Virus record (IMG/VR): IMGVR_UViG_2541047931_000002
Location: 1 to 31,884 of that record
Strand: one strand, 5' to 3'
DNA from: a virus
Taxonomy: Duplodnaviria > Heunggongvirae > Uroviricota > Caudoviricetes
DNA length: 31,884 nucleotides
In this document: piece after piece, positions 28,904 to 29,578 of the stretch
Numbering within the stretch: the stretch's first letter is position 1
Layout of the letters: the number at the start of each line of letters is the position of its first letter
Notes under the pieces: model-generated
Seen by the model: the letters and a program-made list of their open reading frames with translations, nothing else
Told to the model about the DNA's origin: nothing
Databases searched by the model: none
Translations under genes and position numbers: made by a program

Positions 28904-29578
28904 ATGAAAAACACTATCAGCGAACGTATTCGGAATCGTCGAAAAGACGTTGGATTAACCCAACAGCAGGTTGCGAAAGCAATCGGCATATCTCGTGTAT
29001 CCGTAACAAAATGGGAAAATGGCTCTTCAAAACCTGACGGTGAGAATTTGCATCTACTGTCAAAATTGCTTTCCAAATCTCCTGAATGGATTCTTTATGG
29101 AAAGGACGGTCACGATAAAACCGATGATCTGCGTCTGAATCAGTATCTTTACATTAGTGACAACATCGCCCGGTTGCCCGTTTTAACGTGGGAACAGGCT
29201 GGTTATTGGGATATGAGTTGTCCAGTAACCGAGATTCCTGGCATTAAGAATTGGGTTGATGTCATGACAAAAACCGCTGAAAACTCTTTTTTATTGCATG
29301 TTGAGGGAGATGCGATGACAAACTCTAACGGCCTCCCAACCATCCCCGATGGATCTACCGTGCTGATCACACCATGCTCAAGTAACATTAGAGAACTGGT
29401 GGGAAAAATAATCTTAATCCAATTGGAAGGAACGCCAAACGTAACACTAAAAAAAGTTGCGATTGACGGACCAAACATCTATCTGTTGTCACTGAATCCG
29501 CTTTACAAACCCATCGAACTGAATGGTGGTTACACCATTAAAGGTAAAGTTTCACAAATACATCAATACTTAGACTGA
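28904..29578 (+). CDS. cI: CI-like repressor (XRE-type HTH plus S24 LexA-like peptidase domain)
   Basis: Frame of ORF 28805..29578; start placed at ATG 28904 (MKNTISERIRNRRKDVGLTQQQVAKAIGISRVSVTKWENG...), aligning with 434/lambda repressor N-termini; C-terminal domain has the Ala-Gly cleavage-site-like EQAG and Lys (TLKKV), but GDAM where the catalytic GxSM is expected. An upstream ATG at 28862 is an alternative start. Confidence 0.8.
   Translation: MKNTISERIRNRRKDVGLTQQQVAKAIGISRVSVTKWENGSSKPDGENLHLLSKLLSKSPEWILYGKDGHDKTDDLRLNQYLYISDNIARLPVLTWEQAGYWDMSCPVTEIPGIKNWVDVMTKTAENSFLLHVEGDAMTNSNGLPTIPDGSTVLITPCSSNIRELVGKIILIQLEGTPNVTLKKVAIDGPNIYLLSLNPLYKPIELNGGYTIKGKVSQIHQYLD

Follow-up and report, generated by a model that had tools for sequence, protein, structure and literature searches.

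A natural prophage repressor of the CI type with alanine in place of the catalytic serine of its S24 domain, likely blind to SOS

The stretch of viral DNA analyzed here (IMG/VR record IMGVR_UViG_2541047931_000002, positions 1 to 31,884; all 31,884 nucleotides are referred to as the window) is a lambdoid prophage, and at positions 28904 to 29578 it encodes an immunity repressor, the analogue of lambda CI, which carries an alanine, Ala137, at the position of the nucleophilic serine of its C-terminal S24 (LexA/lambda CI) domain. We consider it likely that this protein is a natural SOS-blind repressor of the CI type, kept by selection, in which the S24 domain is intact except for the serine nucleophile. 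The alanine is neither an error nor a one-off: It is widespread, old, selected and has changed repeatedly. When DNA-damaging antibiotics induce a prophage, the lysogen is killed and the genes carried by the phage are spread, and a non-cleavable repressor removes both effects; points of interest beyond this are how frequent the allele is, that a dead active site is strongly conserved, that serine and alanine have been exchanged repeatedly, and that natural allele pairs exist. The repressor and its decisive residues are located as follows:

28904..29578, + strand: open reading frame (ORF) of the repressor (CI analogue, immunity), 224 amino acids plus stop, HTH_3 and Peptidase_S24
28928..29092, + strand: HTH_3 DNA-binding domain, P22 C2-like and DicA-like, residues 9-63 (Pfam E=2e-16)
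29177..29551, + strand: C-terminal domain of Peptidase_S24 fold, predicted to be catalytically dead, residues 92-216 (Pfam and Foldseek)
29198..29203, + strand: Ala99-Gly100 (GCT GGT), corresponding in the alignments to the scissile bond Ala111-Gly112 of lambda CI, retained
29312..29314, + strand: Ala137 (codon GCG), aligned with the nucleophile serine (Ser149 in lambda CI, Ser119 in LexA)
29450..29452, + strand: Lys183 (codon AAA), aligned with the general base Lys192 of lambda CI, retained

The assignment of these residues is based on two alignments that agree with each other. The repressor matches Peptidase_S24 (PF00717) with E=9.4e-17 and 61 bits against a cutoff of 23.3 bits, which makes it a member of the fold, and its best match in a phmmer search of all PDB chains is full-length lambda CI (3bdn, E=1e-13). 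In this pairing, 'eqAGyw' of the repressor faces 'vqAGmf' of lambda CI (Ala111-Gly112), 'vtlKKv' faces 'ftfKKl' (Lys192), and 'llhvegdAmtn' faces 'wlevegnSmta' (Ser149); the same three columns result when MAFFT aligns the repressor with 78 homologues together with lambda CI and E. coli LexA. Compared with an active S24 protein, the repressor thus has the lysine and the scissile Ala-Gly bond and lacks the serine nucleophile. An earlier note, made from the letters of this DNA, had read the C-terminal domain as S24 type, with the Ala-Gly of the linker (EQAG) at the scissile position, the lysine of TLKKV at the position of the general base and the alanine of HVEGDAM in the nucleophile column: Pfam, phmmer and Foldseek confirm the domain, and both alignments confirm the three residues. 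Merely its quotation of the LexA motif as GDSM has to be corrected to SGMSM, the reading in E. coli LexA, which leaves the finding unaffected.

A comparison by predicted fold agrees with the alignments. An AlphaFold2 model of the repressor (mean pLDDT 81) has its best Foldseek matches in lambda CI, the CI-RecA filament complex and LexA, with a probability of 1.00 for lambda CI/LexA. The matches include a hyper-cleavable lambda CI fragment that contains the cleavage-site region as well as the S-to-A LexA entries 1jhh, 6a2s and 8s7g, stable forms that were crystallised or imaged with RecA. An S24 protein that lacks the serine cannot cleave itself, as illustrated by the non-cleavable LexA S119A and lambda cI S149 mutants. 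By this analogy, both RecA*-stimulated and alkaline self-cleavage are predicted to be absent, so that the note's expectation that the repressor cannot self-cleave if the alignment is right is supported.

The N-terminal domain is related to that of P22 C2 (E=3e-12 in the phmmer search of the PDB; TM score 0.96 in Foldseek). It also resembles DicA: The DicA subfamily model (NCBIfam NF007257, 135 amino acids) scores 81.7 bits, which is below its cutoff of 101 bits and does not make the repressor a member, and the match is confined to residues 3-88. The automatic PGAP annotation places the start of the gene at 28862, 42 nucleotides upstream (238 amino acids), which has no influence on the S24 finding, and labels the copies of the repressor 'LexA family protein'. 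This label, like 'S24 family peptidase', implies an activity that the repressor almost certainly lacks.

Self-cleavage might be preserved if another residue had taken over as nucleophile, for which Thr139 and Ser141 are near in sequence (GDAMTNS). However, a comparison of Ala- and Ser-bearing relatives supports no different serine in this role: Thr139 is equally conserved in the Ser-bearing relatives (GESMTNP), position 137 is the only column with a fixed difference between the Ala and Ser clades, and no gain of Ser, Thr or Cys co-varies with Ala137, which argues against a substitute nucleophile. As the S-to-A exchange moreover abolishes the cleavage of LexA, we regard this explanation as hardly credible.

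The role of the protein follows from its genomic context, in which a divergent cro gene, a CII analogue, candidate operators and an operon known from the Qin prophage surround the repressor gene:

28175..28600, - strand: YdaT-family gene, the CII analogue (Pfam YdaT_toxin E=7e-10)
28597..28812, - strand: divergent cro, P22_Cro family, 71 amino acids (Pfam E=2.9e-16)
28842..28855: candidate operator GTAACAATAGTTAC (GTAAC-N4-GTTAC), in the cro-cI intergenic region, overlapping the likely -10 element of the rightward (cro) promoter
28890..28903: candidate operator GTAACATTGGTTAC, immediately 5' of the ATG at 28904, role putative
29583..29610, + strand: terminator-like hairpin with a U run, directly 3' of the repressor stop (-15.5 kcal/mol, z = -4.3), function putative
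29653..29666: candidate left operator GTAACTCTTGTTAC, 75 nucleotides past the cI stop and before the ydfC-dicF-dicB operon, role putative
30825..30876, + strand: DicF small RNA (Rfam RF00039, 61 bits), within the leftward operon

With its N-terminal helix-turn-helix (HTH) domain, the divergent cro and its place between the early-left and early-right operons, the repressor has the attributes of a lambdoid CI analogue, to which repeated palindromic candidate operators on both sides of its gene are added, as judged by sequence. The replication initiator gene lies beyond cro and the YdaT-family gene; YdaT is described as the functional CII equivalent of some lambdoid prophages (PMC9986795). The leftward operon at 30283-31427 is Qin-like (ydfC, DicF, dicB, ydfD/DUF1482) and stands under an S24-type repressor instead of DicA, and the late genes run leftward from Q via the lysis genes, terminase, HK97-type head and tape measure to gpJ. 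Taken together, the flanking cro, YdaT-family and replication genes, the Qin-like operon and the leftward late genes identify the gene as the immunity repressor of a lambdoid prophage. The palindrome GTAAC-N4-GTTAC occurs exactly three times in the window, where 0.43 matches are expected, and all three lie within the immunity region. Its positions are kept in all seven homologous loci that were examined, in Ser and Ala types alike, and the palindromes are probably the operators bound by the HTH domain of the repressor. All these alleles should consequently be homoimmune. The palindrome at 28890 falls inside the longer PGAP reading frame, and the DNA site, not the protein, may be what is conserved in the 'NIGYM' extension.

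From these elements the following mode of action can be proposed. The HTH domain would bind GTAAC-N4-GTTAC on either side of the repressor gene and thereby silence the cro/ydaT/replication operon as well as, presumably, the ydfC-dicF-dicB-ydfD operon, the latter as suggested by the candidate operator at 29653. The S24 domain would still fold, supply the scaffold for dimerization and cooperativity and perhaps bind RecA*; lacking the serine nucleophile, it would not attack Ala99-Gly100 and would not undergo RecA*-stimulated self-cleavage. The prophage would thus be uncoupled from SOS and stay repressed during the DNA damage response, and a lysogen that escapes lysis upon DNA damage would survive, so that the Ala allele would be kept by selection and not represent decay. 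Loss of the repressor itself would release DicB as well as the replication and lysis genes, which would explain why it is under strong purifying selection. Two published results fit a prophage that stays repressed during SOS: Mitomycin C does not induce lambdoid prophages with repressors devoid of the peptidase motif (PMC2669165), and a non-inducible prophage abolishes the extra sensitivity of the lysogen to ciprofloxacin and mitomycin (PMC13320796). The latter observation provides a plausible selective reason for the alanine at the level of the host.

The Ala allele is frequent. The repressor gene is present in 702 of 5426 complete E. coli genomes (~13%, about one in eight), with a median of one and a maximum of two copies per genome; 694 of the 702 carriers have at least 95% nucleotide identity, and the remaining eight 80-90%. 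When the codon was addressed with an 83-nucleotide probe centered on it, the GCG version found 59 exact matches and the TCG version none, and each record of a spread sample lost exactly one match upon replacement of GCG by TCG in the probe. GCG was also read directly in four further alleles, including those of EBJ003, EC2 and 377323_2f plus a fourth allele group, and TCA (Ser, GDSM) in a rare, 84% identical allele of E. coli O178:H19 strain 2012C-4431. Among the 80 IMG/VR loci with at least 97% protein identity, 78 have GCG and two (L091 and L092; 96% nucleotide identity) have TCG and hence Ser; four of the 80 contigs come from metagenomes, which has no bearing on virion production. The Ala allele is carried, among others, by O25b:H4-ST131 strains (e.g., 4993), by clinical isolates (e.g., MNCRE44) and by several serotypes that produce Shiga toxin. 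Among 50,697 records of phage isolates, no repressor is more than 60% identical.

At the protein level, the repressor family forms five full-length clusters and one fragment cluster (P0004, Ala) in a collection clustered at 90% identity. Three of the full-length clusters are of the Ala type (E. coli/E. albertii, 499 members; E. coli, 12; Salmonella, 20) and two of the Ser type (E. coli, 39; Enterobacter bugandensis, 5), and each sampled member shares the state of its own cluster. Of the Ala-type members sampled, a single Salmonella variant (Val-Gly) departs from the scissile Ala-Gly; the others keep it. More distant homologues, at 40-52% identity, all read GESMTNP, the sole exception being a degenerate Arsenophonus protein (P0027). 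The Ala-type module resides at no fewer than three attachment sites, two of them being tRNA-Ser/mtfA and ompW and another lying near the yccA region, beside differing replication and structural modules, and in three species, namely E. coli, E. albertii and Salmonella.

To trace the history of codon 137, we used a bootstrapped neighbor-joining tree in which the first E. coli (Ec1) and second E. coli (Ec2) Ala groups join each other (90%), then the E. coli Ser group (Ec3; 100%), then the Salmonella Ala group (97%), followed by the Enterobacter Ser group and the Ser outgroups. The topology is identical for the N- and C-terminal halves of the repressor, and the Ser allele L091/L092 is placed beside the Ala group Ec1. 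On the tree built without the catalytic column, this column requires at least three changes, all of them between Ser and Ala; 107 of the 224 columns need no change at all, and the catalytic column is tied at rank 17. A single T/G change at codon 137 interconverts Ser and Ala. Within nucleotides 396-417, nucleotide 409 alone distinguishes the Ser allele L091 from the Ala allele L003/L040, which makes a point mutation likelier than a conversion tract. Natural Ser/Ala pairs of this kind, with the same candidate operators and near-identical sequence, provide a ready-made test of host survival versus phage inducibility.

The loss of the nucleophile was not accompanied by relaxed selection on the C-terminal domain, which is under strong purifying selection: Its ratio of nonsynonymous to synonymous substitution rates (dN/dS) is 0.05 between two Ala alleles at dS 0.66, 0.06-0.07 between Ala and Ser alleles and 0.10 between Ser alleles. 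These values bear on the possibility that Ala137 is neutral decay in a cryptic prophage that is heading for loss and has no selective meaning. Such decay would fit the frameshifted integrase of EBJ003, the exonuclease-like ORF of the window, which ends after 78 codons, and the absence of the immunity type from the collections of phage isolates. It does not fit the purifying selection just described, the fixation of Ala in three diverged allele groups, in one of which the state persists across a dS of at least 0.13, or the at least threefold change of one and the same codon, always between Ser and Ala; in addition, the genes for head, tail, lysis and replication are complete in the window. We therefore judge decay to be quite improbable.

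A bolder interpretation goes further than the selected, SOS-blind repressor proposed above: Codon 137 might be an evolutionary toggle between an SOS-inducible (Ser) and an SOS-blind (Ala) state under opposing selection on host and phage, including true Ala-to-Ser reversions. The active site would then be kept because reversion stays one step away, or because it is still used, for trans cleavage or the binding of RecA*. We consider this speculative and rather doubtful; if it were true, the ~15% of CI-like clusters that lack the serine (see below) would be what is visible of a general group of pseudo-peptidase repressors that has gone unrecognised.

Several considerations weigh against a selected, SOS-blind repressor or limit it. 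The changes are compatible with three losses as well as with a single loss and two reversions. That repression should be normal without self-cleavage is an expectation by analogy with LexA S119A and the lambda cI ind-/S149 mutants. Ala-Gly and Lys are conserved in all three Ala lineages, so that the cleavage site could still serve in trans. The Ala module continues to spread, either through phage transfer or through recombination among prophages, and phage transfer, if real, would demand that some route of induction exists. Finally, small antirepressors are hard to recognise and may come from co-resident prophages. Both routes of induction that these points suggest, trans cleavage and a foreign antirepressor, appear less likely to us, for the following reasons.

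In the first scenario, the repressor would still be inactivated by cleavage at Ala-Gly in trans, carried out by a competent S24 protein, with a co-resident Ser-type repressor of the same immunity group, another CI, LexA or UmuD as candidates. Besides the retained Ala-Gly and Lys, it is in favor of this scenario that the Ser-type alleles share the candidate operators and that mixed dimers are conceivable; moreover, Kim and Little reportedly observed in 1993 that active C-terminal fragments cleave S-to-A LexA and CI intermolecularly in vitro. This in vitro trans reaction is slow, however, and even with LexA and UmuD present in the cell, LexA S119A and the lambda ind- alleles are dominant and do not permit induction. 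With at most two and typically one gene copy per genome, a homoimmune partner of the Ser type will usually be missing, and the conservation of Ala-Gly and Lys is to be expected in any case, because most residues are conserved at a dN/dS of 0.05. We thus deem trans cleavage very unlikely.

In the second scenario, the repressor would be blind to SOS and the prophage nevertheless inducible via an antirepressor, either a small one of its own or one from a co-resident prophage, as in Gifsy, 186, SPC32H and N15. The occurrence of the module at several attachment sites in E. coli, E. albertii and Salmonella would be easier to understand if the phages still transmit, several ORFs of the window are of unknown function, and antirepressors that are controlled by LexA and act in trans are documented (PMC3121763). 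Against this, a PHROGs scan of ten early-region or unplaced ORFs detected no antirepressor family (it found a replication initiator, a Ren-like protein and unknowns), although small or foreign antirepressors are easily missed in this way. Likewise, three related prophages have no antirepressor among their PGAP-annotated genes from tail fibre to integrase, and the NCBIfam scan for an antirepressor named only IraM. LexA-box matches with at most one mismatch number 18 in the window versus 10.6 expected, and none lies ahead of a plausible antirepressor gene; the perfect core is found within a structural gene only. The absence of this immunity type from isolated phages also speaks against the scenario, which we consider possible but unlikely. 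The sole perfect CTGT-N8-ACAG (14416-14431) is situated in the portal/prohead-protease region and is probably due to chance.

The remainder of the prophage, including a relative with a different immunity region, contributes the following features:

21443-21778, + strand: IraM-family anti-adapter gene (161 bits), between Q and the lysis genes
21804-21993, - strand: small RNA STnc100, between Q and the lysis genes
22693-22766 and 22870-22942, - strand: two tRNA genes, between Q and the lysis genes
25788-26112, - strand: hok/sok type I toxin-antitoxin locus (Rfam sok at 25938-26112, 110 bits; relatives annotate hokD)
26756-26992, - strand: ORF of the Ren-like exclusion protein family, 78 amino acids (PHROG 142, E=4e-14), adjoining the replication gene
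29855-30211 (+ strand) and 29990-30196 (- strand): two overlapping ORFs on opposite strands, just past the candidate left operator
31521-31757, + strand: exonuclease-like ORF, 78 codons (homologues at this position have ~820 amino acids)
42078-42485 of the L014 prophage (E. coli 1EC213): repressor consisting of an HTH domain only, 135 amino acids

Among complete E. coli genomes, identity to the first 25 kb of the window does not exceed about 97-98%, and those that match best in the structural genes have another immunity module. The L014 prophage is 97% identical to the window over the structural, lysis and Q modules and has a different immunity region. Its HTH-only repressor indicates that repressors with a dead S24 domain, a live S24 domain and no S24 domain are swapped as modules within one prophage family. 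Only one of the two overlapping ORFs can be real: One encodes a 99-residue PHROG of unknown function, the other a 68-residue protein with a zinc-ribbon-like CxxC...CxxC pattern, and related prophages have ydfA/ydfB in their place. Downstream of the exonuclease-like ORF, the sequence does not align with the MNCRE44 copy, which may represent a disruption or a different module.

To see how common a missing serine is among related repressors, we surveyed the catalytic column in 102 aligned full-length sequences, that is, the query and 101 of the closest representatives of clusters at 50% identity. Ser was found in 85 of them, Ala in six (query included), Thr in six, and another residue or a gap in five, so that the serine is missing from ~15% of these CI-like representatives (e.g., P0085, P0099, P0107, P0113 and P0116; further ones are P0148, P0151, P0169 and P0180). 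The other Ala representatives have also lost Ala-Gly, which suggests that those lineages are older; among the Thr representatives, P0085 is the only one in which Ala-Gly and Lys are both present, and the others have lost Ala-Gly. This recurrent loss of the serine in related repressors suggests that domain content alone is a poor predictor of prophage inducibility. In the literature, we encountered neither a natural Ser-to-Ala CI nor this allele, which is weak evidence as subscription journals were mostly not covered; what we retrieved on the question was restricted to repressors that lack the whole domain and to Shiga toxin (Stx) phage CI clades that keep the serine. HK022, described as UV-non-inducible, was considered as a natural analogue and dropped: Its CI has GDSM, Lys and Ala-Gly.

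How, then, does the repressor relate to known systems? It shares HTH_3 and Peptidase_S24 domains, a divergent cro and multiple palindromic operators, here candidates, with the CI/C2 repressors of lambda, P22, 434, 21, 933W and the Stx phages, and its identity to the repressors of P22 (C2), phage 21 and mEp-type phages is 36-43%. These CI/C2 repressors keep the catalytic serine, whereas the repressor described here does not; for the Stx phages, the serine is conserved in CI clades I-VII (PMC8951638). In fold, in the altered catalytic position and in the intact Ala-Gly and Lys, it equals lambda cI ind-, lambda CI S149A and LexA S119A. Mutants of this type repress normally, do not self-cleave, are non-inducible and are dominant. 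They are laboratory mutants, however, while alanine is here the prevailing natural state, conserved and repeatedly arisen or reverted. Non-cleavable repressors that need another route of induction also occur in Gifsy-1/2/3, 186 (CI/Tum), SPC32H and P22 (Ant), but these systems are defined by a cognate antirepressor, and none was recognised for the present repressor. An SOS-insensitive immunity function in lambdoid prophages is likewise exerted by DicA (Qin), RacR (Rac), PaaR2 (CP-933P/Sp12) and the repressors of Sakai Sp4, Sp6, Sp9 and Sp10, and the leftward operon of ydfC, dicF, dicB and ydfD is the one that DicA controls in Qin. PaaR2 has no peptidase motif (PMC8630535), and Sp6, Sp9 and Sp10 are not inducible by mitomycin C (PMC2669165). 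As ~15% of the related CI-like cluster representatives lack the serine too, the repressor is a variant of something already known and not a new kind of system; while DicA, RacR, PaaR2 and the Sakai repressors lack the entire S24 domain, it is a single nucleotide away from an active enzyme.

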